A DNA stretch of 64,000 nt from an uncultured Acidobacteriaceae bacterium (GTDB lineage: Bacteria; Acidobacteriota; Terriglobia; Acidiferrales; UBA7541), in the NCBI GenBank assembly GCA_963773835.1, contig CAVZCQ010000006.1, positions 46,061-110,060 on the forward strand. The letters run 5' to 3'. Below are positions 23,389 through 44,946 of the stretch, in pieces. Below the pieces are notes generated by a model. The model had not been told where the DNA came from. It saw only the letters and a program-made list of their open reading frames with translations, and searched no databases. Both the position numbers and the translations under genes were made by a program. The stretch's first letter is position 1. Every line of letters begins with the position of its first letter.

Positions 23389-23579
23389 TGCCTCTGGCGT
23401 GGTCACAATTCCTTGGGTGGATGGCCCTCGAACCGGCGCCCGGTACGACGGTCCCAGCAGTATTCCGTGAGAAAGTTGCGCGACCTCTCTGTCTCCCGCC
23501 CGGCCTGTGCTGTCGTCATGGTTGAGGAATGCGGCTGCCCCGCCGCCAATCGGAGCCATTGCGGGGCAAGGGGAACTCG

Positions 23580-26500
23580 ATGAGACGCACCTGTTCGATG
23601 GTCTTTCCTCTTGCCGTAGCCGGCATGCTCTTCTACGGCTGCCTCTTCTCCCCGCCGCTCCGCGCGCAGACCTCAGGTAAAACGCCCGCGGCCGGGTCGT
23701 CCGGCGCGCAGGACGCGGAGACCGCCTCCGGGCGGCGTAAGGAACCCGACGAAGTTAGCCGCCGGCAGGAATGGTTCTACCACCAGCGGCGCTACCCACT
23801 CGCTCGCATCCCAGCCGGCGCGCGGCAGCAGGCCCTGCAGCAGCGCGAGGCCAGCCGCAGGGAGCAGGTCAATCGGGGAATGATAGCCGGAAACCAGAAC
23901 CCGGACCCGCCAATCATCTTCAATCCCTGGACGGCCATCGGGCCGCAGCCCACGGCGGCGAACGGATTCGACTTCCTGCAGCAGATCACAAACACCTCGA
24001 ACATCACCGATTTTTCGGGACGGATCAACGCCATCGCCGTGGATCCGAAGAACAACAACATCGTGTATCTCGGCGGCGCGGATGGAGGTCTGTGGAAGTC
24101 CACAGATGCCGGGGCGCATTGGTTGCCGCTCACGGACGCTCAGGCCTCGCTGGCCATGGGCGCCATCGCAATCGACCCGGGAAGTTGCGGCGGGGCCTCC
24201 TGCACGACGATCTACGCGGGCACAGGCGAGGCAAACTTTGCGGGAGACAGTTACTTCGGCGCGGGGGTTCTGAAATCCATCGATGGAGGGATGACCTTCA
24301 CGCAACTGGGCGCCACCGCGGGCTCGGTCACTTTCCTTAGCGCCGTGATCCCGACCAGCTTCGTGGGGCCGTTCGACAGCCAGACGGGCGGCGCCTTCTT
24401 CAGCGACATCGTAGTGAACCCGACGAACTCGCTCCAACTGCTCGCCAGCGTGGACTTCGGAGCAGAGACCAAAGCTTCAGGGATCTTCTGTTCGGACAAC
24501 GGCGGGATGAACTGGAAGCAGGTGGTGGCTGGAGCGGCAGGCACCGCGGTGGTGATCGCTGCGGACGGCAAAACCGCTTTCGGGGCATTGGGCGATCCCG
24601 GGGGCCTGGCCGCAAACGGGATTTATCGATCCACGACTGCCAACAACACATGCGCGACCCAGACCTGGACGCTGCTGAACGCGGCTCCACTGCCCTCGGG
24701 AACGGCCGCGGGCCGGATCTCGCTCGGGCTGGCTCCGAGCATCGCAACCAGCCCCTTCACGCTTTACGCAGCCATCGCGAATCCCTTGAATCAGTCGAGC
24801 ACCTTTCTGGATGTTTTCAAATCGGCGAACACCGGCACGACATGGAGCGCGACGCATGCGCCGGACATCTGCCAGATGCAGTGCTTCTACGACATGGTAA
24901 TCAAGGTGCACCCGAACAACTCGAGCGTGGTGTTCCTCGGCGGCTCGGCAGTCACCAACAGCAACAAAATGGATATATTCCTCCTGCGCTCGACCAACGG
25001 GGGTGGTACGTGGGACGCCGGCAACCTCACTACTGACATAGCCTTCGACGGCACCAACGAAATCCACGTGGACCAGCACGCCATCGCTTTTTCGCCGCCG
25101 ACGCCCGGCGCAGGAAGCTACACCATGTATGTGGGGAACGATGGTGGCGCCTGGGACACGCCCATGACCTGCAACACCATCAACCCCGGGACCTGCTCCA
25201 CGGTAGCCTGGACGGATTTGAACTTGACGCTGTCGCTCTCCCAGCACTATGCCGGAGTCTCGATGCACCCGGCCAGCCAACTGGTGGTTATGGGCGGATT
25301 CCAGGACAACGGCTCGCAGAAATACGACGCCGGGACGTTCCCCGGCTCGACCGCCTGGACCATGATCAACGGTTCCGATGGGGGAGCCACGTACATTGAC
25401 CGTGGAGTTCCCAGCACGGTCTATGCCACCACGGAATTCATTCCCAACTTTTCCTTCATCACGAAATCGGTGACCAACGGCGACCTGGACTCGACGAACG
25501 CGATCACGTTTTCGCAAGCCACGAACGGGATCGACGCCAACGGCACCGGCTCGGACTATTCCGAATTCATCCCGCAGCTCGCCAGCGACCCCACGCCGGG
25601 GAATAACCGGGTGCTTTACTATCCCACCTGCAATCTGTACCAGTCGCGGGATGGCGCGGGGAACTGGACGGCTATGACCGCCGCTTCGCTTTGTGCGGCC
25701 GGGCTGGCGGACTATACGACGATTGCTCCCGCGGCCGACGGAAATACCGTGTACGCCGGAGACAGTAATGGCGGCGTGCACGTAACCACGAATGCGATTC
25801 GCGCGGCCAACGCGGCGTGGACGAACGTAACGAAAGCGCCGCTTCCGGGCCGCTTTATCACCAAAATCGCCGTGTCGCCCACGAACCCGCAATTCGCTCT
25901 GGTAGCCTATTCCGGTTTTTGTGGCTTCAACGCCGGCGACAACGTGGGGCACGTGTTCGAGACCGCGAATGGCGGCACGAGTTGGACGGACATCAGCGGC
26001 GGCTGCAATGGGGTTGTCGGCCAGGCCCTGCCCAACACGCCTGTGAACGACATCGTGATCGACCCGGCGGACAACACGAACCAGACCTTTTATGTGGCCA
26101 CGGACGTGGGCGTGTTTATCACCTCGAATGGCGGGGGCGTATGGCTGCAACTCGACCAGCAGCCCCGGACGCTGCCGGACGGCGTGGTGCTTTCCCTCAC
26201 GCTGCGGAATGAATCGCGGACGCTGGTGGCCGGGCTGCACGGGCGGGGCGCCTGGGCGATGCAGTTGCAGTCGTTCATGCCGGCGTACGGGCTGGCCTCG
26301 CTTACGCCGGTGTTTGCAGCGCAGGGCAGCGCGGCAGACGTGATGCTGACGGCGAACGGAGAGGGGTTTGTGTCGGGCGACACAGTGCAATTCAACGGCG
26401 TGGGGCTGGTGACGACTTTCGTTTCGCCAACGAAACTGACGGCGACAATCCCGGCGGCAATGCTGGCGAACCGGGGCACCGCCTCGATCACCGTCTTTGA

Positions 26501-29500
26501 TGCGACGAACATGTCGAGTAATGCCCTGCCCTTCAGCGTGGTGCTTATCTACAGCGCCGCGGCGGCGGCGCCGCCGAACGACCTGTTTATGAACGCCATC
26601 GCCGTCCCCGCGAGCATGACCTCGTTCACGGATATCCAGAACACCTTTGCCGCCACGATGACCCCGACCGACCCGAATCCCAGTAGCGTCAACGGCTGCA
26701 TTCTCATGGGTGCGAATATTCCGCCACCGGCCAGCAACGGCGCGGCCAACAGCATCTGGTATTCCTACACCCCGACGACGAACGCGATGGTCGAGGCCGA
26801 TACCGTCGGCAGCACCGTGCCGTTAAATAACCAGGGCCTGTTCGGGACCGCGGATACGATCCTCGAGGTGGTCACCGGATCGCCGGTAGCCTTCACCGCA
26901 GTGGCGTGCAACGACGACATCGTCTCCGGAAACTTCATCACCTCAGAGGTCAAGTTCTTGGCCGCGGCAAATACGACGTACTTCTTTATGGTGTCGCAGT
27001 ATGAGGGTGTGGGCGGGATCACGGTGTTCAACCTGAACGCCACGCCCATGCCCACGTTGACGTCTATCACGCCGAACAGTGGATTGACCGGAAGTTCCTT
27101 CATGGTCACCCTCATGGGCTCAGGCTTCACCGCTCCTGTCACGCTCAACTTCAATGGCACGGGAGGTTCGTTCTCCAACGTGCAGGTGGTCAGCAGCACG
27201 ATGATTACGGCCACGCTTACCCTCGCGTCGGGCTTGATGACGGCGACCGATACGGTCTCGGTGACGAACAGCGAGGCTACCAGCAATACGGTGAACTTCC
27301 AGGTCACCAACGGTCCGCCCACGCTGACTTCCATTGCGCCCTCCATGGGCGCGCAGGGCGCAGCGATTCCTGTAACCCTCACCGGAACCAATTTCGACAA
27401 TTCGAGCGCCATTGTGTTCGGCGGGACGGGAATCACGTCGTCGACTCCGGTAGTGGTGAACAGCACCCAGATCACCGCCACGTTCACCATCTCCGGCACC
27501 GCCGCGACGCAAACCGTGATGGTCACCACCATGGCCGGAATGAGCGGGACGGTGCAGTTCACTGTGAATCCGGCGCCGACCATCTCCTCGATCAGCCCCG
27601 CCACGGGCGGCCAGAACAGCGCCATCACGGTAACCATCATCGGCACCAATTTCTTCTCTCCCGCCACCGTGACCGTGAGCGGAACGGGCGTGACGGTGAC
27701 CAATGCGACGGTAACTAGCCCGACGACCATTACGGCCACGTTTACCATCGCCTCGAACGCCACGATCTCCGGGCGCACGGTTTCCGTCACCACGGACGGA
27801 TTCACCGTCAACAGCCCCACCATGTTTACCGTCACTGCGCCGGTGCCGACCTTGAATTCCATCAGTCCGGCGAGCGGAGTCCTCGGGGTAGGCGGCGCCA
27901 CGCAGATGGAATCAGTAACCCTCACGGGTTCCAACTTCGTCGCCCCGGTCACGATCAACTTCAGCGGCACGGGCATCACGGCGACGAGCGTCACGCTGCA
28001 GAGCAGCACTACCATCACCGCAGTTTTCAATATTGCCCCGACCACCGCGCTGGGGACGCAGAATGTGACGGTGACGGCCGGAGGCCAGACCTCGGGGAGC
28101 CAGACGTTTACGGTCGCCTCGCCGCCCACGCTCACTTCGATCAGCCCGACGAGCGGGGTAGTGGGTACCAGCGTTCCCGTCACGCTCACGGGGACAAACT
28201 TCTTCAGCCCGGCCACGATCAACTTTAGCGGGACGGGAATCACCGCAAACAGCGTGACGGTGACCAGCGGGACCACGATCACCGCGACGTTTGTCATCGC
28301 GGCGAATGCGCCCCTGGGCGGCCAGACGATCTCTGTGACCACGAGCGGCGTGACCACTTCCTCCATGGCCGTGCAGTTCACCGTGAATCCCCCGGCGCCC
28401 ACGCTGACCAGCTTGAGCTTGCCGATGGGCGCTCAGGGCGCGGCTTCGATCAGCGAAACGCTGACAGGGACGAATTTCCAAACCGGCGCCGGGAACACAA
28501 CCATCAGTTTCAGTGGGACGGGCATCACGGCGTCGAACATCAACGTGACCAGTTCGACCTCGCTCACGGCCACCTTTATGGTCGCTGCGGGCGCCTCACC
28601 GGGCGCTCAGACCGTGTTCGTGACCACCGCCGGTGGCGCTTCGGCAAACATGACCACTTTCACCGTGGAAGCTGCTCCGACATTGACGATGCTCAGCCAG
28701 ACCACGGGCGTTCAGGGCACTACCACCTCCACGATCACGCTGACGGGGATGAACTTCTTCAGCCCGGCCTCGATTTCCTTCAGCGGGAGCGGCATCACGG
28801 CCAACAGCGTCACCGTGACCAGCACGACCACGATTACGGCAACCTTTACGATTGCCGCCAATGCTCCGCTCGGCCCGCAAACCGTCTTCGTCACCACTGA
28901 CGGCGTGACCACTTCCAACGTGGTGCAGTTCACCGTCAATCCTCCAGTGCCAACGCTCACATCGCTGAGCGTCACGATGGGCGCTCAGGGCGGGACCGTG
29001 AATGAGACGCTGACAGGAACGAATTTTGTGTCCGGAGCCACGATCCAGTTCAGCGGCTCGGGCATCACCGCGTCCAACGTGGTGGTCGTGAGCGCGACGA
29101 GCATTACGGCCACGTTTACGATTTTGGGCACAGCCACGCCGGGGGCGCAAAACGTGACGGTGATGACCTCGGGCGGCACTTCGGGGAGCAAACCGTTCAC
29201 GGTGGAAAGTGCGCCCAGCCTCACCTCGCTCAGCCAGACCATGGGCGCGCAGGGAACCACCACCGGCACGATTACGCTCACGGGCATGAATTTCTTCAGC
29301 CCGGCTTCGATTTCTTTCAGCGCCTCCGGCATCACGGCCAACAGCGTGACGGTGACGAGCGGGACCACGATTACGGCGACCTTCACGATCGCGGCGGGCG
29401 CGACGCTGGGGCCGCAGACCGTCTTTGTGACCACCGACGGCGTGACCACGGCCAATGTGGTGCAGTTTACCGTTGAAGCGCCCCCAACACTGGGCATGAT

Positions 29501-32500
29501 CAGCCCGGCGGGCGGCGATCAGGGCGCGGCCGTGCCGGTGACGCTCACCGGGACCAACTTCTTCTCTCCCGCCATGGTGGCCGTGAGCGGGACCGGCGTA
29601 ACCGTGAGCAATGTGGTGGTGATGAATTCGACGACCATCACGGCAACGTTCACCATCGCCGCGAATGCCACCCTTTCCTCCCGGACGGTCTCGGTCACCT
29701 CGGACGGAGTGACCACCGGGACGGTGATGTTTGGCGTGAACCCGCCGGCGCCCACGCTCACGGCGCTGAGCGTCACGATGGGGGCACAGGGCGCGGTGAT
29801 CAATGAAACGCTCACGGGGACGAACTTCGTCACCGGAGCCGGGAACACGACCATCAGTTTCAGCGGCGCGGGCGTCACGCCATCGAACATCAACGTGACC
29901 AGCGCGACCTCGCTCACGGCCACGTTTACCGTCGCTGCGGGCGCTTCGCCGGGCGCTCAGACGGTGTTTGTGACGACCTCGGGCGGCACGTCCACCAACA
30001 TGACCACGTTCACCGTCGAGGCTGCTCCTACGCTGACCATGCTGAGCGTGACCGCCGGCGATGAAGGCACCACCACCGGCACGATTACTCTCACGGGCGC
30101 CAATTTCTTCACTCCGGCCAGCATCACGTTCAGCGGAACTGGAATCACAGCCAACAGCGTGACGGTAACGAGCCCGACCACGATTACGGCCACGTTCACG
30201 GTCGCGGCGAACGCGACGCTGGGTGCCCAGACCGTGTTCGTGACCACCGACGGCGTGACCACTTCCAACGTGGTGCAGTTCACCGTCAACCCGCCTGCGC
30301 CCACCCTCACCGCGCTCAGCACCACGATGGGAGCCCAGGGCGCGGTGATCATGGAAACCCTGACCGGGACGAACTTCCAGATGGGCGCCGGGACCACCAC
30401 CATCAGCTTCAGCGGGGCGGGGATCGTAGCGTCGAATATCAACGTGACCAGCGCGACCTCGCTCACCGCCACCTTTACGGTCGCTGCCAACGCCGCGGCG
30501 GGCGCTCAGACCGTGTTCGTGACCACCGCGGGCGGCAAATCGGCCAACATGACCACCTTCACGGTCAACGCCGCGCCCACGCTCACCATGCTCAGCCAGA
30601 CCATGGGCGCCCAGGGCACCACCACCGGCAGCATCACGCTGACGGGCACGAATTTCTTCACTCCGGCCAGCATTTCGTTCAGCGCCATGGGCATCACCGC
30701 GAACAACGTGACGGTGACGAGCGCGACCACGATTACGGCGACCTTCACGATCGCGGCGGGCGCGACGCTGGGGCCGCAGACCGTCTTTGTGACCACCGAC
30801 GGCGTGACCACGGCCAACGTGGTGACCTTTACCGTGGACGCTCCGCCTACGGTGACCATGATCAGCCCGGCCATGGGGGGCCAGAACACGGCGACCAACG
30901 TGACCATCACCGGAACCAACTTCTTCTCTCCCGCGGTGGTCAATATCACCGGAACGGGAGTCACGGTGAGCAGCGTGATGGTGACGAGCCCGACGACCAT
31001 CACCGCGACGTTTACCATCGCTTCCGGCGCTACGCTTTCCGGACGAACCGTAACGGTGATGACCAACGGGGCCACCACGGCCACGGGAGTCACGTTTACC
31101 GTAATTCCGCCCGTTCCCAACATCACCATGCTCAGCCCGACGATTGGGGCGCAGGGCACCACCGTCAACCTCACGATTACGGGCACGAATTTCCTGGTTG
31201 GAGCCGGCAACACGGTCAACTTCGGCGGCGCGGGCGTGACGGTGATGAACACCAATGGCACGAGCGCGACCACGATCACGACGCAACTGGTGATCGCCGC
31301 CGGGGCCGCTCTGGGCGCTCAGAACATTTCGGTGACCACTTCCGGCGGAACCTCGAACAACTCTCCATTTACGGTGGAGGCGCCACCGACGCTGACCATG
31401 CTGAGCCAGACCAGCGGCAATCAGGGCACCACTACGCCCACGATTACGCTGACGGGCACCAATTTCTTCTCGCCGGCCACGATTTCGTTCAGCGGGACGG
31501 GGATCACGGCGAACAGCGTGATGGTGACCAGCACGACCACCATCACGGCGACGTTCACGATTGCGGCAAACGCAACGCTGGGTCCGCAGACCGTTTTCGT
31601 GACCACCGACGGGGTGACCACTTCCAACGTCGTCCAGTTCACCGTCAATCCGCCCGTGCCCACCCTCACCCTGCTCAGCCAGACCCAGGGCGCCCAGGGA
31701 ACTACCGTCAGCCTCACGCTGACGGGCGCCAACTTCATCATGGGCGCGACGACGGTGAACTTCAGCGGCGCGGGCGTCACGGTCCAGAACACCATGGTCA
31801 CCAGCGCCACCACCCTCACCACACAGTTTGTAATCGGCGCCGGGGCCGCGCTGGGCGCGCAGAACGTTTCGGTGACCACGGCGGGAGGCACTTCGGGGAA
31901 CCAGACCTTCACGGTCGAAGCCCCGCCCACCCTCACCATGCTCAGTCTGACCACGGGCGTTCAGGGCACCACCACGTCCACGATTACGCTGACGGGAACG
32001 GGCTTCTTCACTCCGGCCACAATCAGCTTCAGCGGCACGGGCATCACCGCAAATAGCGTGACAGTGACCAGCACGACCACCATCACGGCCACATTCACGA
32101 TCGCGGCCGGCGCCGCGCTGGGACCACAGACCGTCTTTGTGACCACCGACGGGGTGACCACTTCCAACGTCGTGCAGTTCACCGTCAACCCGCCTGCGCC
32201 CACCCTCACCGCGCTCAGCACCACGATGGGAGCCCAGGGCGCGGTGATCATGGAAACCCTGACCGGGACGAACTTCCAGATGGGCGCCGGGACCACCACC
32301 ATCAGCTTCAGCGGGGCGGGGATCGTAGCGTCGAATATCAACGTGACCAGCGCGACCTCGCTCACCGCCACGTTCACCATCGCTGCCAACGCCGCGGCGG
32401 GCGCTCAGACCGTGTTCGTGACCACCGCGGGCGGCAAATCGGCCAACATGACGAATTTCACGGTCGAGGCCGCGCCCACGCTCACCTCGCTCAGCCAGAC

Positions 32501-35489
32501 TATGGGCGCCCAGGGCACCACCACCGGCACCATCACGCTGACGGGCACCAGTTTCTTCACTCCGGCCAGCATTTCGTTCAGCGCCATGGGCATCACGGCG
32601 AACAACGTGACGGTGACGAGCGCGACCACGATTACGGCCACCTTCACGATCGCAGGAAACGCAACGCTGGGGCCGCAGACCGTCTTTGTGACCACCGACG
32701 GCGTGACCACGGCCAACGTGGTGACCTTCACCGTGGACGCTCCGCCTACGGTGACCACGATCAGCCCGGGGATGGGCGGCCAGAACACCATGGTGTCGGA
32801 GACCATTACCGGGACCAACTTCTTCTCTCCCGCCACGGTGGCCGTGAGCGGGACCGGGGTGACGGTGAGCAACGTGATGGTGACGAGCCCGACGACCATC
32901 ACGGCCACGTTCACCATCGCCTCCAATGCCACGCTCTCCGGGCGTACCGTGTCCGTCACGACGAACGGAGTGACGGCCAACAGCCCGACGATGTTTACCG
33001 TGACGCCGCCGGTTCCCAACATCACCATGCTCAGCCAGACGATGGGAGCACAGGGGACGACCGTCAACCTGACCATCACGGGCACGAACTTTGTGACCGG
33101 GGCCGGCGGCAGCACAGTGAATTTCAGCGGCGCGGGCGTGAACGTATTGAACACGAACGCCACCAGCACGACAACAATTACGACGCAACTGATGATCACC
33201 GCCGGGGCCGCCCTGGGCATGCAGAACATCTCTGTGACCACATCCGGCGGAACCTCGAACAACGCCGCGTTTACCGTGGAGGCTCCGCCCACACTGACCA
33301 TGTTGAGTGTGACGAGCGGGGACGAGGGCACTACCACTCCAACGATTACTCTCACGGGGACGAATTTCTTCTCGCCCGCCACGATTTCATTCAGCGGGAC
33401 GGGGATCACGGCGAACAGCGTGATGGTGACCAGCACGACCACCATCACGGCAACGTTTACGATCGCGGCGAACGCAACGCTGGGTCCGCAGACCGTCTTC
33501 GTGACCACGGACGGCGTGACCACCTCGAACGTGGTGCAGTTCACCGTCAATCCGCCCGCGCCCACCCTCACCGCGCTCAGCCAGACCATGGGCGCGCGGG
33601 GAACTACCGTCAACCTCACGCTGACAGGCACGAATTTCCAGACTGGCGCCACGACGGTGAACTTCAGCGGCGCGGGCGTCACGGTCCAGAACACGATGGT
33701 GACCAGCGCCACCAGCCTCACCACGCAGTTTGTAATCGGCGCCGGGGCCGCGCTGGGCGCGCAGAACGTTTCGGTGACGACTGCGGGAGGCACTTCGGGG
33801 AACCAGTCCTTCACGGTGGAAGCCCCGCCCACCCTCACCATGCTCAGCCAGACGAGTGGGGATGAGGGCGCCACCACCGGCACGATCACGCTCACGGGCA
33901 CGAATTTCTTCACTCCGGCCAGCATTTCGTTCAGCGGCACCGGAATCACGGCCAACAGCGTGATGGTGACCAGCACGACAACGATTACGGCCACCTTTAC
34001 GATCGCCGCCAATGCCCCGCTCGGGGCGCAAACGGTCTTCGTGACCACCGACGGCGTGACCACTTCCAACGTGGTGCAGTTCACCGTCAACCCGCCCGCG
34101 CCCACGCTGACCATGCTCAGCGCGACTTCCGGGGTGCAGGGCAACACGGTGATGGAGACGCTCACGGGGACCAACTTCCAGATGGGAGCCGGGGCCACCA
34201 CGGTCAACATCACCGGGGCGAACATCATGGTGACCGGCACGAACGTGACCAGCTCCACGACGCTCACGGTGAATTTTGTGCTCGCGGCCAACGCCTCGCT
34301 CGGCGCTCAAAACGTAACGGTGACCACGGCCGGCGGCACGTCCGGTACGCAGACGTTCACCGTGCTTCCGCCGCCACCAACGCTCACCATGCTGAGCGCG
34401 TCCACCGGCGTGCAGGGCAACACTGTGGCAGAGACGCTGACCGGGACGAATTTCGTCGCCGGCGCGACGACCATCTTGTTCAGCGGCTCCGGAATCACCA
34501 CCACGAACGTGATGGTGACCAGCCCGACGACCCTGACGGCGAACTTCGTGATCAGCGCCACGGCCACGCTGGGCATTCAAAACGTATCCGTGATGACCGC
34601 CGGAGGGACATCGGGGACACAGCCGTTTACGGTGTTTCCGCCGCCGCCGACGATTACTGCCATCAGCCCGACAGGCGCCACGCTGGGAACTGCGAATCTG
34701 ATGGTGACGATCACGGGCACGAACTTCGTTACCGGGCCGCTCTTCAAGGTCAACGTGCCCGCCGGCCAGGGCATCACTGTGACGAACGCTACGGTGGTGA
34801 GCAGCACCATGATTACGGCGACGTTCACGATTGCGGCGAACGCCACCACGCCATTGCAGAACGTGACCGTGACCACGGCAGGCGGGACCAGCAACAACCA
34901 GCCCTTCGGCGTGGGCACGAACTTCACGATGACGGAGAATCCCTCCTCCAGCACGGTCATGGCAGGGGGAATGGCCGGCACCACGCTCACGATTATGTCC
35001 ACGACGCCAAACACTCAGTTCCCGGCCAACGTGCAGTTCTCCGCATCGGGACTGCCCAATCTTTCCACGTGCAACTTCACCAGCACGGCAGCCGGATTCA
35101 TGGGAGGCGCGACGGGAATCCTGCCGGCAGCCGACGGGACCGCGGCCATGACGCAGGTGATGTTCATGTGCACGACCACCAAGGCGTCATTCGTGGCGCC
35201 GCGCACGCCTGCACCCTGGGCACCGCTGGGCGCCTCGCCGCTCGTCGCTCTGGCCTGGGGAACGCTGCTGATGGCGCTCGGCGCAGGATTGGTCGCCGCC
35301 AGGCAGCAGCGCGGCCGCCGGCTGCAGTGGGCGCTCGCCGCCTTCCTGATCCTGGCCTTCGCAGGCTTCTCGAGCGCCTGCCACAACATGGGCATGCCGG
35401 GCACCATGCCGGGACCGTACAACATCACTGTGAAGGCCACCTCCGGCAACGCCACGCAGACCGTCACCTACACGCTGACGGTGCAGTAG
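23580..35489 (+). CDS. Giant secreted surface protein (~3969 aa): signal peptide, BNR/Asp-box beta-propeller, 1 IPT/TIG, PPC-like jelly-roll, ~29 tandem IPT/TIG domains, C-terminal split Ig-like module with TM hairpin
   Basis: Track ORF 23529..35489. I prefer ATG 23580 (RBS aagggga; the same start context ctcgATGAGACGC as the paralogue). About 9 Asp-box-like motifs are present (STDAGAHW, SIDGGMTF, SRDGAGNW, TANGGTSW...). The repeated unit is P.LT.[IL]S...G.QG.....LTGTNF....I.FSG.GIT...V.V.S.TTITATF.I...A.LG.Q.V.V.T.G.....FTV. Confidence 0.9.
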   Translation: MRRTCSMVFPLAVAGMLFYGCLFSPPLRAQTSGKTPAAGSSGAQDAETASGRRKEPDEVSRRQEWFYHQRRYPLARIPAGARQQALQQREASRREQVNRGMIAGNQNPDPPIIFNPWTAIGPQPTAANGFDFLQQITNTSNITDFSGRINAIAVDPKNNNIVYLGGADGGLWKSTDAGAHWLPLTDAQASLAMGAIAIDPGSCGGASCTTIYAGTGEANFAGDSYFGAGVLKSIDGGMTFTQLGATAGSVTFLSAVIPTSFVGPFDSQTGGAFFSDIVVNPTNSLQLLASVDFGAETKASGIFCSDNGGMNWKQVVAGAAGTAVVIAADGKTAFGALGDPGGLAANGIYRSTTANNTCATQTWTLLNAAPLPSGTAAGRISLGLAPSIATSPFTLYAAIANPLNQSSTFLDVFKSANTGTTWSATHAPDICQMQCFYDMVIKVHPNNSSVVFLGGSAVTNSNKMDIFLLRSTNGGGTWDAGNLTTDIAFDGTNEIHVDQHAIAFSPPTPGAGSYTMYVGNDGGAWDTPMTCNTINPGTCSTVAWTDLNLTLSLSQHYAGVSMHPASQLVVMGGFQDNGSQKYDAGTFPGSTAWTMINGSDGGATYIDRGVPSTVYATTEFIPNFSFITKSVTNGDLDSTNAITFSQATNGIDANGTGSDYSEFIPQLASDPTPGNNRVLYYPTCNLYQSRDGAGNWTAMTAASLCAAGLADYTTIAPAADGNTVYAGDSNGGVHVTTNAIRAANAAWTNVTKAPLPGRFITKIAVSPTNPQFALVAYSGFCGFNAGDNVGHVFETANGGTSWTDISGGCNGVVGQALPNTPVNDIVIDPADNTNQTFYVATDVGVFITSNGGGVWLQLDQQPRTLPDGVVLSLTLRNESRTLVAGLHGRGAWAMQLQSFMPAYGLASLTPVFAAQGSAADVMLTANGEGFVSGDTVQFNGVGLVTTFVSPTKLTATIPAAMLANRGTASITVFDATNMSSNALPFSVVLIYSAAAAAPPNDLFMNAIAVPASMTSFTDIQNTFAATMTPTDPNPSSVNGCILMGANIPPPASNGAANSIWYSYTPTTNAMVEADTVGSTVPLNNQGLFGTADTILEVVTGSPVAFTAVACNDDIVSGNFITSEVKFLAAANTTYFFMVSQYEGVGGITVFNLNATPMPTLTSITPNSGLTGSSFMVTLMGSGFTAPVTLNFNGTGGSFSNVQVVSSTMITATLTLASGLMTATDTVSVTNSEATSNTVNFQVTNGPPTLTSIAPSMGAQGAAIPVTLTGTNFDNSSAIVFGGTGITSSTPVVVNSTQITATFTISGTAATQTVMVTTMAGMSGTVQFTVNPAPTISSISPATGGQNSAITVTIIGTNFFSPATVTVSGTGVTVTNATVTSPTTITATFTIASNATISGRTVSVTTDGFTVNSPTMFTVTAPVPTLNSISPASGVLGVGGATQMESVTLTGSNFVAPVTINFSGTGITATSVTLQSSTTITAVFNIAPTTALGTQNVTVTAGGQTSGSQTFTVASPPTLTSISPTSGVVGTSVPVTLTGTNFFSPATINFSGTGITANSVTVTSGTTITATFVIAANAPLGGQTISVTTSGVTTSSMAVQFTVNPPAPTLTSLSLPMGAQGAASISETLTGTNFQTGAGNTTISFSGTGITASNINVTSSTSLTATFMVAAGASPGAQTVFVTTAGGASANMTTFTVEAAPTLTMLSQTTGVQGTTTSTITLTGMNFFSPASISFSGSGITANSVTVTSTTTITATFTIAANAPLGPQTVFVTTDGVTTSNVVQFTVNPPVPTLTSLSVTMGAQGGTVNETLTGTNFVSGATIQFSGSGITASNVVVVSATSITATFTILGTATPGAQNVTVMTSGGTSGSKPFTVESAPSLTSLSQTMGAQGTTTGTITLTGMNFFSPASISFSASGITANSVTVTSGTTITATFTIAAGATLGPQTVFVTTDGVTTANVVQFTVEAPPTLGMISPAGGDQGAAVPVTLTGTNFFSPAMVAVSGTGVTVSNVVVMNSTTITATFTIAANATLSSRTVSVTSDGVTTGTVMFGVNPPAPTLTALSVTMGAQGAVINETLTGTNFVTGAGNTTISFSGAGVTPSNINVTSATSLTATFTVAAGASPGAQTVFVTTSGGTSTNMTTFTVEAAPTLTMLSVTAGDEGTTTGTITLTGANFFTPASITFSGTGITANSVTVTSPTTITATFTVAANATLGAQTVFVTTDGVTTSNVVQFTVNPPAPTLTALSTTMGAQGAVIMETLTGTNFQMGAGTTTISFSGAGIVASNINVTSATSLTATFTVAANAAAGAQTVFVTTAGGKSANMTTFTVNAAPTLTMLSQTMGAQGTTTGSITLTGTNFFTPASISFSAMGITANNVTVTSATTITATFTIAAGATLGPQTVFVTTDGVTTANVVTFTVDAPPTVTMISPAMGGQNTATNVTITGTNFFSPAVVNITGTGVTVSSVMVTSPTTITATFTIASGATLSGRTVTVMTNGATTATGVTFTVIPPVPNITMLSPTIGAQGTTVNLTITGTNFLVGAGNTVNFGGAGVTVMNTNGTSATTITTQLVIAAGAALGAQNISVTTSGGTSNNSPFTVEAPPTLTMLSQTSGNQGTTTPTITLTGTNFFSPATISFSGTGITANSVMVTSTTTITATFTIAANATLGPQTVFVTTDGVTTSNVVQFTVNPPVPTLTLLSQTQGAQGTTVSLTLTGANFIMGATTVNFSGAGVTVQNTMVTSATTLTTQFVIGAGAALGAQNVSVTTAGGTSGNQTFTVEAPPTLTMLSLTTGVQGTTTSTITLTGTGFFTPATISFSGTGITANSVTVTSTTTITATFTIAAGAALGPQTVFVTTDGVTTSNVVQFTVNPPAPTLTALSTTMGAQGAVIMETLTGTNFQMGAGTTTISFSGAGIVASNINVTSATSLTATFTIAANAAAGAQTVFVTTAGGKSANMTNFTVEAAPTLTSLSQTMGAQGTTTGTITLTGTSFFTPASISFSAMGITANNVTVTSATTITATFTIAGNATLGPQTVFVTTDGVTTANVVTFTVDAPPTVTTISPGMGGQNTMVSETITGTNFFSPATVAVSGTGVTVSNVMVTSPTTITATFTIASNATLSGRTVSVTTNGVTANSPTMFTVTPPVPNITMLSQTMGAQGTTVNLTITGTNFVTGAGGSTVNFSGAGVNVLNTNATSTTTITTQLMITAGAALGMQNISVTTSGGTSNNAAFTVEAPPTLTMLSVTSGDEGTTTPTITLTGTNFFSPATISFSGTGITANSVMVTSTTTITATFTIAANATLGPQTVFVTTDGVTTSNVVQFTVNPPAPTLTALSQTMGARGTTVNLTLTGTNFQTGATTVNFSGAGVTVQNTMVTSATSLTTQFVIGAGAALGAQNVSVTTAGGTSGNQSFTVEAPPTLTMLSQTSGDEGATTGTITLTGTNFFTPASISFSGTGITANSVMVTSTTTITATFTIAANAPLGAQTVFVTTDGVTTSNVVQFTVNPPAPTLTMLSATSGVQGNTVMETLTGTNFQMGAGATTVNITGANIMVTGTNVTSSTTLTVNFVLAANASLGAQNVTVTTAGGTSGTQTFTVLPPPPTLTMLSASTGVQGNTVAETLTGTNFVAGATTILFSGSGITTTNVMVTSPTTLTANFVISATATLGIQNVSVMTAGGTSGTQPFTVFPPPPTITAISPTGATLGTANLMVTITGTNFVTGPLFKVNVPAGQGITVTNATVVSSTMITATFTIAANATTPLQNVTVTTAGGTSNNQPFGVGTNFTMTENPSSSTVMAGGMAGTTLTIMSTTPNTQFPANVQFSASGLPNLSTCNFTSTAAGFMGGATGILPAADGTAAMTQVMFMCTTTKASFVAPRTPAPWAPLGASPLVALAWGTLLMALGAGLVAARQQRGRRLQWALAAFLILAFAGFSSACHNMGMPGTMPGPYNITVKATSGNATQTVTYTLTVQ
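27042..34919 (+). repeat. In-frame tandem array of ~29 IPT/TIG-domain coding repeats (unit ~270-285 nt)
   Basis: Counted by eye from the translation, one unit per ...FTV[NEDT][PA] boundary. Several alternating subtypes are visible (NINVTS type, FF[ST]PA[ST]ISF type, GQN...VTS type, PNITMLS type). Confidence 0.85.
30291..34091 (+). repeat. Two consecutive ~1.9-kb super-repeats (7 IPT domains each; 30291-32189 and 32190-34091) that are near-identical at nucleotide level
   Basis: Offsets of 1899 and 1902 nt. The stretches I compared by eye (about 30241-30860 vs 32141-32760, and 31381-31690 vs 33281-33590) differ at only a few percent of positions. Confidence 0.8.
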
Positions 35490-35514: not shown

Positions 35515-35619
35515 CTTTACGCGGCCATTTCGGAACGCCGCACGACGGCCGCGCGTGTCAACCGGGCGGGATTAACCCGCCCCGACACTCTCGGAGCAGT
35601 GGCCCGGCCAGGGAGCTCG

Positions 35620-38600
35620 ATGAGACGCGGTCCTTCGGTGGTCTTTCTTTTTGGGGTGGCCAGCCTGGTACTGGCCGGATGGCTCATCTCCCTTCCGCTC
35701 CGGGGGCAATCCACGGGGGACCGTCCGCCAACAGCGAATCCGCGGGATGACGGAGACGAAAATTCCGCCTCGGGCCCTGAGAGTGAACGCGACGACGTCC
35801 GCGGCCGGGAGGAGTGGTTCTATCGCCAGCGGCGGTATCCGCTGGCGGCGATTCCGGGTGGCGCGCGACTGAAGGCGCTCGAGCGAAAAGAGGAGATGCG
35901 CCGCGCGCAGCGCGAACAGCGCAACGGCTCCGGCGGCGCGAATGCGAGCACCTTCATCGCCCTCCGAATGCTGGCCAGTGCCACGGCGTGGACTCCCATC
36001 GGTCCGACGCCGACCGCAGATGCCGACCCTGCCGTGGGGCTGGTATCGGGCCGGGTCACTGCGATCGCGGTGGACCCCACGAACTCCAACATTGTTTTTG
36101 TGGGTGGCGCCCAGGGCGGTGTGTGGAAGTCCACCGACGGGGGAGCGCACTGGCTGCCCATGTTCGACACGGAAAAAACGCTGGCCATCGGCTCGATCGC
36201 CATCGACCCTTCGAGCTGCGCTCCGGCGCCTTGCACAACCCTGTATGTGGGCACCGGCGAGCAGAATTTCTCCGGCGATTCCTACTATGGAGCGGGCATC
36301 TATAAATCCACAGATGGCGGCATGACCTGGGCCCAGGTCCTGGGCGAAACCATCCTGAACCCGCAGCCCGCCGCGCCGGATTCCTTTCTTCCGCCGGCAG
36401 CGCCGTTCAACCAGGCTGTCGGCGGCGCGCGCATCGGCGCATTGGTTGTGCATCCGGCGACGCCAACGCGAATTTTCGCTGCCGTGCAGATCTTCGAGAA
36501 CGTGGGAGGCGGCGCCAGCTCCGGCATCTATTGCTCGGATGATGAAGGCTCAACGTGGACGCAAGTAATTTCCGGCGCCATCGGAACCGACGTGGCCATC
36601 AATGCGACGGCAGGGATTGGCTATGCGGCGCTGGGATCAAACAATGGGGACACAGACAACCGCGACACGACAGGCCAGAACGGCGTGTACAAGTCCGTCA
36701 ATGTCAATGCGGCTTGCGCGAGCCAAACCTGGACGCTGGTGAGCAAGGCGCCCGTCCCACTGGCCACCGCTGCGGGGACGATCCGGCTGGGACTGGCCCC
36801 CTCCGACGCCAGCGGCAATACCTTGTACGCCGCGGTCACCAATCCCATCTCCTCGACCCCGCCTTTCAATACCACGCTCGCCGGCGTGTTCAAGACGGTC
36901 AATGGGGGGACGACGTGGACCGTCGTCACTCCTTCCCAGGATTTCTGCATGAACCAATGCGATTACGACCTGGCGCTGAAGGTTCACCCCAACGACGCCA
37001 ATACCGTATTTGCCGGCGGGTCGGCGGTCCGCGACAACGGCGGCCAGCCTTTCTTCCTGCTGCGAACGAACGACGGCGGCGCCACCTGGACGCAGATCGC
37101 GCAGGATTCAGGCGGCACGCTGCTGCACGTGGATCAGCATGCCATCGCATTTGGATTTACTGGTGCGAATGTGAGCTCGATCTTTGTGGGCAACGATGGG
37201 GGAATCTGGCGCTCGCCGCTGGCTGCGCCCATGAGCCCCATTGCCTGGACGAACCGGAACCAGACTCTGCAGCTCTCTCAGTTCTATCCCGGGATTTCGA
37301 TGGATCCGGCGACGGCGAATCTCGGCTTCGGAGGCACACAGGACAACGGCACGCAGAAATATGACGTCGCGGCCAACCCTCCGAACCAGTGGATTGAGCA
37401 GGCCCCGTGCGGGGACGGCGGCTACACGGCGATTGATCCGGCTTCGCCGAGCACCATTTATGCGGCTTGCCAGAAGATCCGTATTCGCAAGTCATTCAAC
37501 GACGGGGCGGACAATTTCTTCACCGCCGCGGACAGCGGCATCGCGCAATCCGACCGGTCTGAGTTCATCCCCCCGCTGGTGATTGATCCGAATCCGGCCA
37601 GCTCCAACCGGCTGTACTTCGGTACGTACCGCGTGTGGCAGACCGCCAACGGAGGAGGAAGCTGGATCGCGATTTCCCCCGATCTGACCGCCGGTCCTGC
37701 GAACTCCCCCGATTTGACCAGCCTCTCTGTGTCTCCCGTGAATTCCGACGTAGTTTACGCAGGAACGTTTGACAGCAAAGTGTGGCGCACCACAAATGCC
37801 AGCTCCGGGAGCGGAGCCACATGGACGGAACTGGACGGGGGTACGCTCCCGCCGCGAGCCATCACCGAGGTTGTCGCCGACCCCAACCGTGCGGATTCCG
37901 TGTTCGTCACCGTTTCGGGTTTCAGTGGATTCCAGATCAACCCGCCGGCGACGGACACGCAGGGGCACGTGTTCCGTTGCTCCGCCACCCAGTCCTCCTG
38001 CACGGACATCAGCGGCGCTGGGGCCGGCGCTTTGCCTAACGTGCCGGTCAACGCCATCGTGGTGGACCCGATTGACGCCATCAGCGACACCCTGTACATC
38101 GGCACCGACGTCGGCGTGTTTGCGAGCCTGGACGGAGGCACCACCTGGCAGCCCGATTTTCCCGGGGCGCCGAATGGGCTGCCCAACGTGGCCGTACTTT
38201 CATTGACGCTGCAGCCCACGGTGCGAATTCTGCGGGCCGGCACGCACGGGCGCGGCGCCTGGGACCTGCAGCTTTCCAATGTGGCGCCTCTCCGGCTGGC
38301 CTCCCTGGCGCCGAACACCGCGCCGGTGACCACGATGAGCCTGTTGCTGACGTTGACCGGAGGGGGTTTCACATCGAACTCCACGGTATTGTTCAACGGC
38401 GTCACGCACACGCCGTCGTTGCAGAGCTCGATGCAGATGACGGCCACGCTGAATGCGGGCGACTTTTCGAGCGTCGGCCCGGTGAACGTGCAGGTATCCG
38501 ACCCGGTGGGCGGCCTCTCCGACACGATGACTTTCACGATCACGAACGACTTCAAGTTCTGTGTGGGTGTGAGCGCGGGCATGGCGTGCCCCATCACGGG

Positions 38601-39165
38601 CTCTGGTTCCACACCCCGCGGGGTTGCGCTGGCCACCCCGCTCACGATTATGCCTGCCCAGAGCGCTCCCTTCCCTGCCAACGTGCTGTTCTCCTGTTTG
38701 GGATTGCCGAACGAGTCGTCGTGCAACTTCACGAGCACCGCGCCTGGATTCAGCGCCAATCCGCCGACGTTGCCAGCCTCCGCTGGAACGATGGGGAACA
38801 CGCAGGTGACCGTATCGTTCATGACCACCGCCCCGTCGCTCGTGGCGCCGCGAGGGCGCCGGCGGGGGCCCCCGGTGGCCGCGCCGCCGGTCGTAGTCTT
38901 TGCCTGGGGCTCGCTGCTGGCCGCACTGAGCGCCGGGCTGATCGCCGCTGCTCGCCAGCGCCGCACACGGCTGCGTTGGGTATTCGCGGTCCTGCTGCTC
39001 CTGGCGTTCGCGGGGATGACCGGCGGCTGCGGAGGCAGCAGCGGGAATGGAGGCGGAGGAGGCGGGGGAAATCCAGGGACCATGCCGGGAACATATCCCA
39101 TCACAGTGATGGCCACGTCCGGCAGCGTGTCTCACAGCGTCACGTACACGCTGACGGTGCAGTAG
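35620..39165 (+). CDS. Paralogue of the giant gene without the IPT array (~1181 aa): signal peptide, BNR/Asp-box propeller, one IPT/TIG, the same C-terminal split Ig/TM-hairpin module
   Basis: Track ORF 35599..39165; ATG 35620 has RBS agggag. The N-terminus is collinear with the giant protein (GRVTAIAVDPTNSNIVFVGGAQGGVWKSTDGGAHWLPMFD vs [40 protein letters not shown]). The last 9 aa, VTYTLTVQ plus stop, are identical. Confidence 0.9.
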   Translation: MRRGPSVVFLFGVASLVLAGWLISLPLRGQSTGDRPPTANPRDDGDENSASGPESERDDVRGREEWFYRQRRYPLAAIPGGARLKALERKEEMRRAQREQRNGSGGANASTFIALRMLASATAWTPIGPTPTADADPAVGLVSGRVTAIAVDPTNSNIVFVGGAQGGVWKSTDGGAHWLPMFDTEKTLAIGSIAIDPSSCAPAPCTTLYVGTGEQNFSGDSYYGAGIYKSTDGGMTWAQVLGETILNPQPAAPDSFLPPAAPFNQAVGGARIGALVVHPATPTRIFAAVQIFENVGGGASSGIYCSDDEGSTWTQVISGAIGTDVAINATAGIGYAALGSNNGDTDNRDTTGQNGVYKSVNVNAACASQTWTLVSKAPVPLATAAGTIRLGLAPSDASGNTLYAAVTNPISSTPPFNTTLAGVFKTVNGGTTWTVVTPSQDFCMNQCDYDLALKVHPNDANTVFAGGSAVRDNGGQPFFLLRTNDGGATWTQIAQDSGGTLLHVDQHAIAFGFTGANVSSIFVGNDGGIWRSPLAAPMSPIAWTNRNQTLQLSQFYPGISMDPATANLGFGGTQDNGTQKYDVAANPPNQWIEQAPCGDGGYTAIDPASPSTIYAACQKIRIRKSFNDGADNFFTAADSGIAQSDRSEFIPPLVIDPNPASSNRLYFGTYRVWQTANGGGSWIAISPDLTAGPANSPDLTSLSVSPVNSDVVYAGTFDSKVWRTTNASSGSGATWTELDGGTLPPRAITEVVADPNRADSVFVTVSGFSGFQINPPATDTQGHVFRCSATQSSCTDISGAGAGALPNVPVNAIVVDPIDAISDTLYIGTDVGVFASLDGGTTWQPDFPGAPNGLPNVAVLSLTLQPTVRILRAGTHGRGAWDLQLSNVAPLRLASLAPNTAPVTTMSLLLTLTGGGFTSNSTVLFNGVTHTPSLQSSMQMTATLNAGDFSSVGPVNVQVSDPVGGLSDTMTFTITNDFKFCVGVSAGMACPITGSGSTPRGVALATPLTIMPAQSAPFPANVLFSCLGLPNESSCNFTSTAPGFSANPPTLPASAGTMGNTQVTVSFMTTAPSLVAPRGRRRGPPVAAPPVVVFAWGSLLAALSAGLIAAARQRRTRLRWVFAVLLLLAFAGMTGGCGGSSGNGGGGGGGNPGTMPGTYPITVMATSGSVSHSVTYTLTVQ

Positions 39166-39272: not shown

Positions 39273-41696
39273 CTAGGGCACAATCGGAATCGTAAAGTTC
39301 CGCTCCACGAACTGCCCCGCGGGAGTCGCTGGAAGAACCGAGGCATCGGTCACCCGGATGATGAATCCATTGACGCCGCCGCAGGTGGTCCCGGCCGTGC
39401 CAGCGGCAGTTCCGGAGATCTCGCCCGAAGTCGGGTTCAGCGTCAGACCGGCACAATTCGGATCCGACGCCAGGACGCCGTCCGGATTGCTCCAGGTGCG
39501 CTTCACGGCTCCGGTGGAGTCCACGACCGTGCCGCCGGCTGCCACGATAAAAGTGGCGTAGGGGTTTGCCGCCAGCGAAGCCGACGGAAGAGCGAATGGA
39601 GAGGCCGGGGCAAAGCCACCGGTGGTGAAATGGAGCGCCGGATCCACCATCAGGTCGAGTAGCTGCGGGCAGGAGCCTCCGTTGCCGCAAGGGTTTGTCG
39701 GAGCAGCGGAGAGCGGCGCCGGGTCAGTTGAGATGGCCGGGTCGATCACGGCTACGTCGGTCGCAATGTTGTACTCGATGGGGATGATGGTGTCCGAATC
39801 TTGGCAGCTCACGAATAAACGAGTGCCGGAGGGGGCGCCCGTCAATCGGGCCTTGATATCAACCGGCGTTTCGCAGCCCGATATCTGCGGGTTGGTACCG
39901 GGAGGCACGGGCAGGCTGATTGTGGCCACGGGAGCGGTGAAGTTGACCGTGCTGAGGTCCCCTGCCGAGATGTCGTACACCTGCACCGCGTTGTTGATCT
40001 GAGGCGTATTTGTGACGTCAAGACAATTGACAAACAGGCGATTGCCATCCGGCGAGGCGGTGAGGCCGGACACCACGTCGCCGTTCGCGCAGACATTGGC
40101 CGGCACGGTCGGGATCGTGTTGACCTGGGTGGAACCCGCCGACGCCGTAGTGATGGAGACAAAAATAAAGGCCCCGGTATTGTCGCGTGTGGCCGTATAC
40201 ACGTAATTCCCGCGCGGGTCCGTCGCGATTCCTCCTGCTCGCAGCCCGTTGCTCAGTGTGGTGGCCACGGTGGGAGCGGCGGCAATAGGTGTAGTGGGAA
40301 GACTCAGCACGCTGAACGTCGTGCACGGGGGGTTAGCTCCGACACAAGTTCCCGAGGGCAGATAATTCAAGGACAGGAAAGCCAAGCTGCCATCCGTGCT
40401 CAACGAAATGTTGTTGGCGTTGGGGACGATAAGGGCATCAGCTCCCGACAGGGTAGTCGGCACGAGTCCCGGATCTTCGGCGTCCGGAATCGGCTCCACA
40501 GTGGCTGAAGCCTGAGCACCGTCCGTGGGCTCGGACAGCCAGGCGTCATACCGGAAATTCCTCTGGACGGAGCAGGGAGGCGTTCCGCACGCAAACGCAG
40601 TGGAAAAGAACTTCTGGTTCCCGATATCAATCGCGCTGGGGTTGAACGTACCCGTGTTCGATACCACGATGGAATTGACCGCCAAGTCGCTGGCTGCGCA
40701 TCCCGGCGCCACGCACCCCGTGACCGTCGAGATCGAGTCAACCACCGAAACGTCGTGAGTATTCCCCTGTTTAGGCGCGTACACCCACTCGCCATCCGGT
40801 GAAACGCGGGCCGCAACCGGGTTGGCAGGGTTGACCGCGCTCGTTCTCAAGGAGATGAAGTTGACGGGGCTGAAGCCGTTGCTGTCGAAAGACACCACCG
40901 TGGAACCCATCTCTGCAGCACCCGATGCAAAGGTGGCTACGAAACCGTACTCCGGGAGAACTTTGTTGGTGGTGGTAAAGGTCGGGCAAGTGGTGGCGGT
41001 GGTGCAATTGGGCGTGGTGGGGTTGCTCGAATCGGTCACCGTAAAGGTGGTGGAGATCGTCGGCGTGCCCGGGGTGGAAGCCGTCGTGGGCGTTCCAACG
41101 TAATATCCCCTCTGTTGGGTCGCATCGTCGGTGGGCAGCGGAGAGGGATTGACGAACACGACTCCAGCTATCCCGCCCGCTGTCGTGGACCATGTGTAAG
41201 CAGGAGGAGGAGCGGCAGACGGGATTCCCCCGTTGTTGCTATAGAAAATCGCGCTATAGGGCTCGCCCACCGTGCCGTTCTCCAGGAACGTGTTTCCGAT
41301 CGTCAGCTCGGGAACTACGGTGATCGAGTCGGTGTTCCTCACACTGGCCGGGTCAGTGGCCACGGTGGCTGCCGGGGTGGTGGCATCGGCCGTATCCGCG
41401 AGGGTTATGGTGCCGGTCGCAGTGCTCCCCGTCACCCCGGCGCCTCCGCTATTGCAAGTCAACGTCAGCGTGGAATCCGCAGCGTTCGCTTGCGTGGGGC
41501 AGGTAATCGGCGTGGGGAAGCCCGAGCCCATGATCATCACGGTCGGCAGCCCTTCGCCGGCTGCCACCATGTAAGTCAGGTCCTGACTACCCTGCGGCGT
41601 GCCGTACTGCCGCCCGGTGACGGCATTCGTCACAGGGTTGGGACTCGGCAGGCTGATCGCCAATTGAAGACGGATGGTGATCGTTTTGGAAACCAC
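39273..41696 (-). CDS. C-terminal part (~815 codons) of a large lipoprotein adhesin: cadherin-like/He_PIG-type Ig modules + YVTN/lactonase-like beta-propeller + terminal Ig module; joined to the upstream ORF by a frameshift
   Basis: The apparent GTG start is an artefact. The frame is open upstream and reads ...SSTGTTAVVSKTITIRLQLAISLPSPNPVT, continuing the repeat pattern of the upstream ORF. Propeller-like blades include GNYVYTATRDNTGAFIFVSI, NRLFVNCLDVTN and GTRLFVSCQDSDTIIPI. Confidence 0.8.
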   Translation of the reverse strand: MVSKTITIRLQLAISLPSPNPVTNAVTGRQYGTPQGSQDLTYMVAAGEGLPTVMIMGSGFPTPITCPTQANAADSTLTLTCNSGGAGVTGSTATGTITLADTADATTPAATVATDPASVRNTDSITVVPELTIGNTFLENGTVGEPYSAIFYSNNGGIPSAAPPPAYTWSTTAGGIAGVVFVNPSPLPTDDATQQRGYYVGTPTTASTPGTPTISTTFTVTDSSNPTTPNCTTATTCPTFTTTNKVLPEYGFVATFASGAAEMGSTVVSFDSNGFSPVNFISLRTSAVNPANPVAARVSPDGEWVYAPKQGNTHDVSVVDSISTVTGCVAPGCAASDLAVNSIVVSNTGTFNPSAIDIGNQKFFSTAFACGTPPCSVQRNFRYDAWLSEPTDGAQASATVEPIPDAEDPGLVPTTLSGADALIVPNANNISLSTDGSLAFLSLNYLPSGTCVGANPPCTTFSVLSLPTTPIAAAPTVATTLSNGLRAGGIATDPRGNYVYTATRDNTGAFIFVSITTASAGSTQVNTIPTVPANVCANGDVVSGLTASPDGNRLFVNCLDVTNTPQINNAVQVYDISAGDLSTVNFTAPVATISLPVPPGTNPQISGCETPVDIKARLTGAPSGTRLFVSCQDSDTIIPIEYNIATDVAVIDPAISTDPAPLSAAPTNPCGNGGSCPQLLDLMVDPALHFTTGGFAPASPFALPSASLAANPYATFIVAAGGTVVDSTGAVKRTWSNPDGVLASDPNCAGLTLNPTSGEISGTAAGTAGTTCGGVNGFIIRVTDASVLPATPAGQFVERNFTIPIVP

Positions 41697-44850: not shown

Positions 44851-44946
44851 ACACGTCCTCCCATGAGTACGGAGTGCGAAGACAAAGTGGCCCGACCCCA
44901 AATACACGACGACCCCTCAGCGTCCGTCGTTTTGGCAAGCTACTAC

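Follow-up and report, generated by a model that had tools for sequence, protein, structure and literature searches.

Two adjacent genes in a 64,000-nucleotide stretch of DNA from an uncultured Acidobacteriaceae bacterium (assembly GCA_963773835.1, contig CAVZCQ010000006.1, positions 46,061 to 110,060; hereafter the window) encode proteins that probably end in the same C-terminal anchor, the lipo-invert module. Our results suggest that in this module an Ig-like β-sandwich is opened between its fifth and its last two strands by an insertion of about 60–70 residues, a hairpin of two hydrophobic helices whose second helix ends in a lipobox-like Cys. The first gene (23529..35489, + strand) encodes a giant protein of 3986 amino acids (aa). 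The second (35599..39165, + strand) is its tandem paralogue and spans 1188 aa, with a likely start at the Met at 35620.

In support of this, both C-termini were matched by NF058595.1 (NCBIfam release 20.0), named 'invert_tail' and described as 'lipo-invert putative C-terminal anchoring domain-containing protein'. This model has 113 positions and a curated cut-off of 37 bits. The giant scored 57.9 bits (model positions 4–113) and the second protein 86.9 bits (positions 2–113), and both matches run to the last residue of the protein. The first-pass annotation, made from the letters of the window, had found the same arrangement and knew of no named family for it. Since both copies pass NF058595.1, that statement did not survive and, by the measure which that annotation had set itself, the existence of a family, most of the novelty is gone. 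The module is catalogued, with a model and a name but without a published characterisation that we could find, and the window proteins are two more members. The interest that is left lies in whether the internal lipobox is actually used.

Organisation of the two C-termini

The giant protein begins with a signal sequence and a Sortilin/BNR-type propeller, continues with about 30 repeats of some 90 aa each and closes with the lipo-invert module. Translation of positions 34920–35486 gave exactly the 189 aa quoted in the first-pass annotation, and these residues are the C-terminus of the 3986-aa open reading frame (ORF). The module was modelled with AlphaFold2 (AF2), using a 75-sequence alignment, and hydropathy was measured with a 19-residue Kyte-Doolittle (KD) scan. 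Strands A–E of the terminal Ig-like domain occupy 34920..35204 (+) and end in TTTKASFVAPR, the VAPR being encoded at 35193–35204 (+). AF2 placed these strands in module residues 2–86, with predicted local distance difference test (pLDDT) scores mostly of 80–97. A Pro/Ala-rich linker (35205..35237, +; AF2 coil, pLDDT 61–64) leads from strand E to helix 1, PLVALAWGTLLMALGAGLVAA (35238..35300, +; KD peak 2.07; AF2 helix 107–129), a predicted stop-transfer transmembrane (TM) segment running from outside to inside.

Helix 1 is followed by the Arg-rich turn RQQRGRR (35301..35321, +), with four Arg and no acidic residue, which is predicted to be cytoplasmic. Then comes helix 2, LQWALAAFLILAFAGFSSAC (35322..35381, +; KD peak 1.71; AF2 helix 135–150), predicted to be re-entrant and similar to a signal peptidase II (SPII) signal, with the lipobox-like end FSSA-C. 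Its Cys codon lies at 35379–35381, 19 uncharged residues precede the Cys, and the lipobox pattern described below is satisfied. The remaining 35 aa (35382..35486, +) form a tail made of the linker HNMGM and strands F and G (approximately 35412–35483; AF2 strands 165–175 and 178–188, pLDDT 95–98), and the stop codon of the ORF is at 35487–35489 (+). The positions given in the first-pass annotation were thus confirmed, exactly for the Cys codon and closely for helix 1, which it had put at about 35220–35300.

The adjoining gene encodes a protein with a propeller of the giant's type, one choice-of-anchor Z repeat and the lipo-invert module. Here strands A–E span 38596..38853 (+) and end in SLVAPR, with VAPR at 38842–38853 (+). 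Helix 1 (38890..38952, +) has a KD peak of 2.15 and was modelled as a helix at residues 99–120, and the Arg-rich turn, RQRRTR and then LR, covers 38953..38970 (+). Helix 2 (38971..39030, +), recognised by KD, AF2 and the lipobox pattern, has the lipobox-like end MTGG-C. It is followed at 39031..39162 (+) by a Gly-rich tether, GGSSGNGGGGGGGN, and by strands F and G, PGTMPGTYPITVMATSGSVSHSVTYTLTVQ; AF2 gave a pLDDT of 51–63 for the linker and of 93–94 for the strands (residues 165–188). The C-terminus of this gene is the second copy of the module to which the first-pass annotation had alluded.

The order of parts is common to both copies. Each has two hydrophobic helices by KD and AF2, a basic, acid-free loop (RQQRGRR or RQRRTRLR) and a Cys preceded by a small residue. 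The second copy is the more typical one, with a Gly-rich stretch after the Cys; the tether is present there, and the giant has HNMGM instead, with a His directly after the Cys. An unfiltered scan of all six-frame ORFs of the window with the profile hidden Markov model (HMM) revealed no third copy. Note that the same scan with default filters missed the copy in the giant.

At the other end of the giant, a probable N-terminal Sec signal peptide, MRRTCSMVFPLAVAGMLFYGCLFSPPLRA, lies at 23580..23666 (+), with a hydropathy peak centred on residue 31 and a cleavage site placed by inference. This signal suggests that the passenger is exported. The clear KD peaks of the giant are this signal sequence and the two C-terminal helices; one segment of the repeats, at residue 1860, was barely over the threshold (1.70). 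The approximately 30 tandem repeats occupy window positions 26000–34900 (aa ~920–3790), with spacings of 86–98 aa, and match NF058597.1 and Pfam TIG. Many of the repeat blocks are near-identical, so their number may reflect assembly collapse or expansion. By its name, NF058597.1, 'choice-of-anchor Z repeating domain', is one of the domains that precede alternative C-terminal anchors.

The split Ig-like domain and its relatives

In the AF2 models of both copies the order of elements is strands A–E, two helices and strands F–G, which is that of a seven-strand sandwich. The mean pLDDT was 84.9 for the giant module and 79.4 for the second copy, which gave the same picture. Foldseek searches against the PDB returned mainly Ig-like β-sandwiches; one of them is the linker domain of a sialidase from Micromonospora viridifaciens. 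Alignments to such sandwiches are about 180–187 columns long and cover the giant's model over the whole query, so the tail is included.

Homology to uninterrupted copies of the domain provides evidence that is both independent and stronger. Removal of the hairpin columns from the family alignment left a profile of 114 positions, with which 11 uninterrupted internal copies of the domain were found within family members. In P0215, for example, a contiguous copy (aa 24–132, 80 bits) is followed by one that is split around the hairpin (aa 138–226 and 285–317). Strands A–E of the giant match positions 5–89 of this profile, and its tail matches positions 82–114. The uninterrupted copies indicate that the tail is equivalent to the last two strands, F and G, of an ordinary domain, and that hairpin, Cys and tether together are an insertion in the E–F loop. 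The conserved TTTAP-like stretch upstream of helix 1 is simply where strand E ends; the uninterrupted copies have it too, and their consensus reads ...SCSG-P-STC-F-P..TLTITTTA..PGTPAGTYT-TVTATSGS..H....LTV.

By sequence, the module contains the same domain as the uninterrupted Ig-like repeat of Acidobacteriota exoproteins, which has a loop of 3–10 residues where the anchor form has the ~60–70-residue hairpin, the Cys and the tether. The repeat has no Pfam family above threshold, and shows weak similarity to Big_3_5, He_PIG and Cadherin-like domains. Neither the module nor the hairpin-deleted consensus had a significant Pfam match, and a PDB sequence search with that consensus gave no match at E ≤ 1. 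Note that the last 34 positions of NF058595.1 alone score 42 bits on the consensus of the uninterrupted domain, which has no hairpin. Since this passes the cut-off, matches to the model need full-length coverage to be trusted, and its use without a coverage check can yield false 'lipo-invert' calls.

The metagenomic protein P0166 (267 aa) has an FN3-like domain of about 95 aa between the Gly tether that follows the Cys and the last two strands, which argues that this side of the membrane segment is exported. The part after the Cys can, to judge from this arrangement, carry a cargo of its own. Together, these data agree with what the first-pass annotation had proposed for the fold and the topology. 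The Ig-like sandwich interrupted by a hairpin was recovered in the AF2 models of both copies and in the comparison with uninterrupted homologues. The reading of the tail as the missing final strands was upheld by the AF2 run on the modules (tail pLDDT 93–98) and by the contiguous homologues. Finally, the predicted topology, with ectodomain and tail both outside, fits the positively charged loop and the FN3-like domain of P0166.

We searched for relatives with a family profile (alignment A1, from strand E to the end). It had 213 matches in a word-indexed database, and an exhaustive HMMER search of 1.84 billion representatives returned 6235 cluster representatives at E ≤ 1e-3, of which 729 also passed E ≤ 1e-10. 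The 144 top representatives were listed and re-scored, and in 140 of them the match came within 3 residues of the C-terminus. The carriers are between about 200 and more than 2000 residues long. Thousands of proteins repeat the parts in one order and at one spacing, and the arrangement is far beyond chance.

A genome scan, made with an alignment of three close sequences and biased to close relatives, identified 11 loci, all in metagenome-assembled genomes (MAGs) of Acidobacteriota (Terriglobia, Acidobacteriaceae, Acidoferrales, Terracidiphilus and Acidipila). At these loci, eight full-length proteins match NF058595.1 at their C-terminus with 51–97 bits. Their passengers are unrelated and include S8 subtilase, pro-kumamolisin, FG-GAP, SBBP propeller, choice-of-anchor D and Big_3_5 domains. 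The module therefore travels among unrelated exported passengers and behaves as a sorting or anchoring device. All taxonomically named examples of the family are Acidobacteriota but one, HVN07539.1 of the P0128 cluster, which is labelled 'Patescibacteria group bacterium', probably through a binning error. That cluster (1185 aa) is probably close to the second protein of the window, judged by length and module position alone.

Some family members are reported in public metagenome calls as proteins of 77–150 aa that resemble small lipoproteins and are fragments of the lipo-invert tail (L013:3890-4300, L014:1-603 and L015:1-749). L013 and L014 are a degenerate locus behind an FG-GAP gene, where strand E, the hairpin and the tail alone are in frame, and L015 has a frameshift within the Ig-like domain. 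The short ORFs P0194, P0209, P0213, P0239 and P0252 all start inside helix 1; P0041 and P0068, both on long contigs, correspond to a degenerate or frameshifted locus and to a frameshift, respectively. Among the small database ORFs inspected there was no clean natural two-gene (split) version, which would have favoured a function in trans, all being frameshifts or internal start calls. Gene callers often cut such tails off as spurious small ORFs, labelled 'hypothetical' or 'small lipoprotein'.

The internal lipobox and its possible use

The region of helix 2 is well supported, from its sequence, as the n-region, h-region and lipobox of an SPII substrate. The residue before the Cys is Ala, Ser or Gly in 117 of 120 relatives, and Gly follows the Cys in 117 of the same 120. 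The pattern {DERK}(6)-[LIVMFWSTAG](2)-[LIVMFYSTAGCQ]-[AGS]-C, which we take to be PROSITE PS51257, is satisfied by 235 of 267 family sequences, including both window copies (ILAFAGFSSAC and LLAFAGMTGGC). The uncharged run before the Cys has a median length of 17 residues (interquartile range 17–18.75), and that of helix 1 a median of 20. The loop between the helices has medians of 8 residues, 4 Lys or Arg and no Asp or Glu, that is, a charge of about +4. From the Arg cluster to the Cys there are 19 residues in the giant and 17 in the second protein. The layout which the first-pass annotation had recognised in helix 2 and its Cys was therefore recovered in the lipobox pattern, the 17-residue run and the basic loop.

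We propose that Sec would export the passenger by means of its N-terminal signal sequence, until helix 1 halts the transfer. The Arg-rich turn would stay in the cytoplasm by the positive-inside rule, and helix 2 would re-enter the membrane N-in/C-out, like a lipoprotein signal peptide, which would bring the Cys to the outer face. The 'invert' of the family name presumably refers to this orientation of helix 2, as set by helix 1. The tail would be exported and, as the AF2 prediction and the homology suggest, would return to the sandwich and supply its missing strands, F and G. Large exported enzymes and adhesin-like rods would in this way be fastened to the cytoplasmic membrane at their C-terminal end, through an Ig-like 'foot' next to the membrane.

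Because the lipobox is near-invariant, we consider it likely, if not strongly so, that Lgt adds a diacylglyceryl group to the Cys. Cleavage by LspA is possible, with a probability below that of lipidation; strand complementation would then keep the resulting lipopeptide in the domain, and the hairpin would still hold the passenger unless it were also removed. More tentative still, and in our opinion doubtful, is the version in which the internal lipobox is a true Lgt/LspA substrate and the two resulting chains are joined by β-strand complementation, so that a triacylated lipopeptide of 40 residues tethers the C-terminal end. In autoproteolysed SEA/GAIN domains and in chaperone-usher donor-strand complementation, terminal β-strands from one chain complete the domain of another. 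The module would resemble these systems only if LspA cleaves, and then by analogy of mechanism and not by homology; SEA/GAIN domains use autoproteolysis, where the module would putatively use a membrane signal peptidase.

With ordinary Sec/SPII signals, which are handled by Lgt, LspA and Lnt, the module shares the basic n-region, the run of about 17 residues, the lipobox and the Gly/Ser tether. In an ordinary SPII signal, the Cys lies within about 15–35 residues of the start of the precursor. In contrast, the giant has the Cys of its module at residue 3951 of 3986 and the second protein at residue 1144 of 1188, so that the giant's signal lies some 3950 residues in and not at the N-terminus. 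Moreover, a stop-transfer helix precedes this signal and sets its orientation, the 'mature' part consists of two β-strands only, and processing is putative.

Several observations weigh against the lipo-invert anchor as proposed here. While both window proteins share with NF058595.1 the two helices, the Arg-rich turn, the lipobox-like Cys, the two-strand tail and the extreme C-terminal place, the copy in the giant departs from the family: its lipobox is S-S-A-C and not L-A-[GAS]-C, a His follows the Cys, and the Gly-rich tether is missing. Its 35-aa tail is also shorter than the minimum of 39 aa among the 120 relatives measured, and its lipobox may be decaying. The Foldseek E-values were weak (3e-3 for the giant and 0.16 for the second copy), and the placement of the tail comes from AF2 strand assignment and pLDDT, not from inter-strand contacts. 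We found no paper describing the module or an experiment on it; the literature hits for 'C-terminal lipobox' concern the end of ordinary signal peptides. Even in the name of NF058595.1, 'anchoring' is putative. Finally, a rod of about 30 repeats held in the inner membrane of a diderm raises the question of where the passenger is located.

Concerning the giant, the close relative P0209 has a nearly identical helix 2 (LEWALAAVLVFTFAGFASAC) but keeps CGGGGSS. The loss of the tether in the giant thus appears, from this comparison, to be secondary. If just one of the window copies is processed as a lipoprotein, that of the second gene is the better candidate.

The alternative that competes best is a plain hairpin, in which the two helices hold the protein in the cytoplasmic membrane without lipidation or cleavage at the Cys. 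The Cys would then be conserved for another reason, such as packing at the interface or a different modification. Two TM helices would suffice for this, the giant's copy has been retained despite its weak lipobox and absent Gly tether, and about 12% of the family sequences miss the strict lipobox pattern. However, a plain anchor would need neither a conserved lipobox, nor a short hydrophobic run, nor a Gly/Ser tether, which is typical of lipoproteins after the Cys. Among the 144 top representatives, the Cys is present in 143, with Ala, Ser or Gly before it in 141 of these (~98%) and Gly after it in 138 (96%). Moreover, the 17-residue run is tightly constrained, like that of a signal peptide, and is shorter than helix 1 (20). 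We consequently regard the plain hairpin as rather unlikely.

It is less probable again that the lipobox is processed by Lgt, LspA and Lnt, that the hairpin is clipped in the Pro-rich linker and that Lol may then carry the passenger to the outer membrane, with a C-terminal lipid anchor made by strand complementation. The lipobox statistics favour this reading as much as the one we prefer, the tail strands are integral to the fold by homology, and a Pro/Arg-rich linker of 10–25 residues, modelled with low confidence, joins strand E to helix 1. The passengers, proteases and adhesin-like repeats, are also of surface type. Nevertheless, we found neither a family-linked protease candidate nor a conserved cleavage motif before helix 1, and the small ORFs inspected include no natural split version, which makes this reading wholly inferential.

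Another proposal of the first-pass annotation was that VAPR, helix 1 and the Arg cluster resemble a tripartite sorting signal of the PEP-CTERM/LPXTG type. In this case a sortase- or exosortase-type enzyme would cleave and transfer the protein at the signal, and what follows would be an unrelated extension. The likeness of a motif, a TM helix and an Arg cluster near the C-terminus is superficial. VAPR was present in just 5 of 210 relatives, and no column of the family alignment is conserved between strand E and helix 1. There is no LPXTG motif in either window C-terminus and, apart from invert_tail, the NCBIfam sorting-signal models (PEP-CTERM, LPXTG and others) gave no match at E ≤ 1. The region never lies at the very end of the protein, with 55–68 further residues after the Arg cluster. 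Pfam detected no exosortase, sortase, rhombosortase or CPBP protease in 20 of the larger window ORFs, and NCBIfam no sorting enzyme in five flanking ORFs. We therefore discard this proposal as very improbable.

It is true that the module, like tripartite sorting signals, is a portable C-terminal unit found on many unrelated exported passengers, has a TM helix followed by an Arg cluster, and co-occurs with 'choice-of-anchor' domains. It differs from them in that it lacks a signature motif ahead of helix 1, continues with another helix and a folded tail, and has its Cys after the membrane segment and not before it. We know of no dedicated sorting enzyme for the lipo-invert module. An invariant Cys is carried by the MYXO-CTERM signals of the myxosortase system (Haft, bioRxiv 10.1101/2023.06.07.544157); that preprint makes no mention of lipo-invert, lipobox or Acidobacteria.

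The weakest explanation, an artefact in which a large secreted protein is fused or frameshifted to a small lipoprotein gene, could draw on the 77–150-aa 'proteins' beginning inside helix 1 that public metagenome callers often report, but we consider it negligible, as both window copies and nine independent MAG loci have an unbroken reading frame, the small ORFs inspected are frameshifted or truncated long forms, and the upstream half-domain is incomplete without the tail.

If the lipo-invert anchor is real, one portable C-terminal device would keep thousands of Acidobacteriota exoproteins cell-bound, among them subtilases, sedolisins, propeller proteins and very long adhesin-like rods. This would matter for the way in which these bacteria, abundant in soil, use their degradative enzymes and adhere to surfaces. 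No earlier case is known to us in which the lipoprotein pathway acts on an internal, near-C-terminal signal, with a domain split around the membrane, and the module would be the first. To our knowledge this pathway lipidates N-termini only, and processing of the internal lipobox would be a way round that rule. Were the module cleaved, it would be a bacterial counterpart of the non-covalent tethers of SEA/GAIN type, from which force- or protease-dependent release, or Lol-dependent relocation, could follow.

Genomic neighbourhood

Directly upstream of the giant gene lies a gene for a FliA/WhiG-family sigma factor (21883–22812, +; TIGR02479, 244 bits), preceded by an ORF for an OmpR-type response regulator (19637–21601, +) with about 390 unexplained N-terminal residues. 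These two regulators may be dedicated to the two genes for surface proteins. Further upstream, Pfam identified MacB/FtsX and M16 peptidase genes.

On the other side, two large ORFs without a family match, 41587–44907 and 39273–41696 (−), overlap by about 110 nucleotides and may be one gene broken by a frameshift. ORF 41587–44907 has a classical N-terminal lipoprotein signal (...LMLAALGGLSGC-ASGSHG), which provides a host lipobox for comparison with the internal ones. Downstream are a gene for a protein with CarboxypepD_reg and an outer-membrane β-barrel match of 838 positions (45092–49243, +) and one for a Ser/Thr kinase with TPR repeats and a TonB_C domain (49554–53795, −). Both gene types are associated with Acidobacteriota, and thus agree with the taxonomy of the module's relatives.

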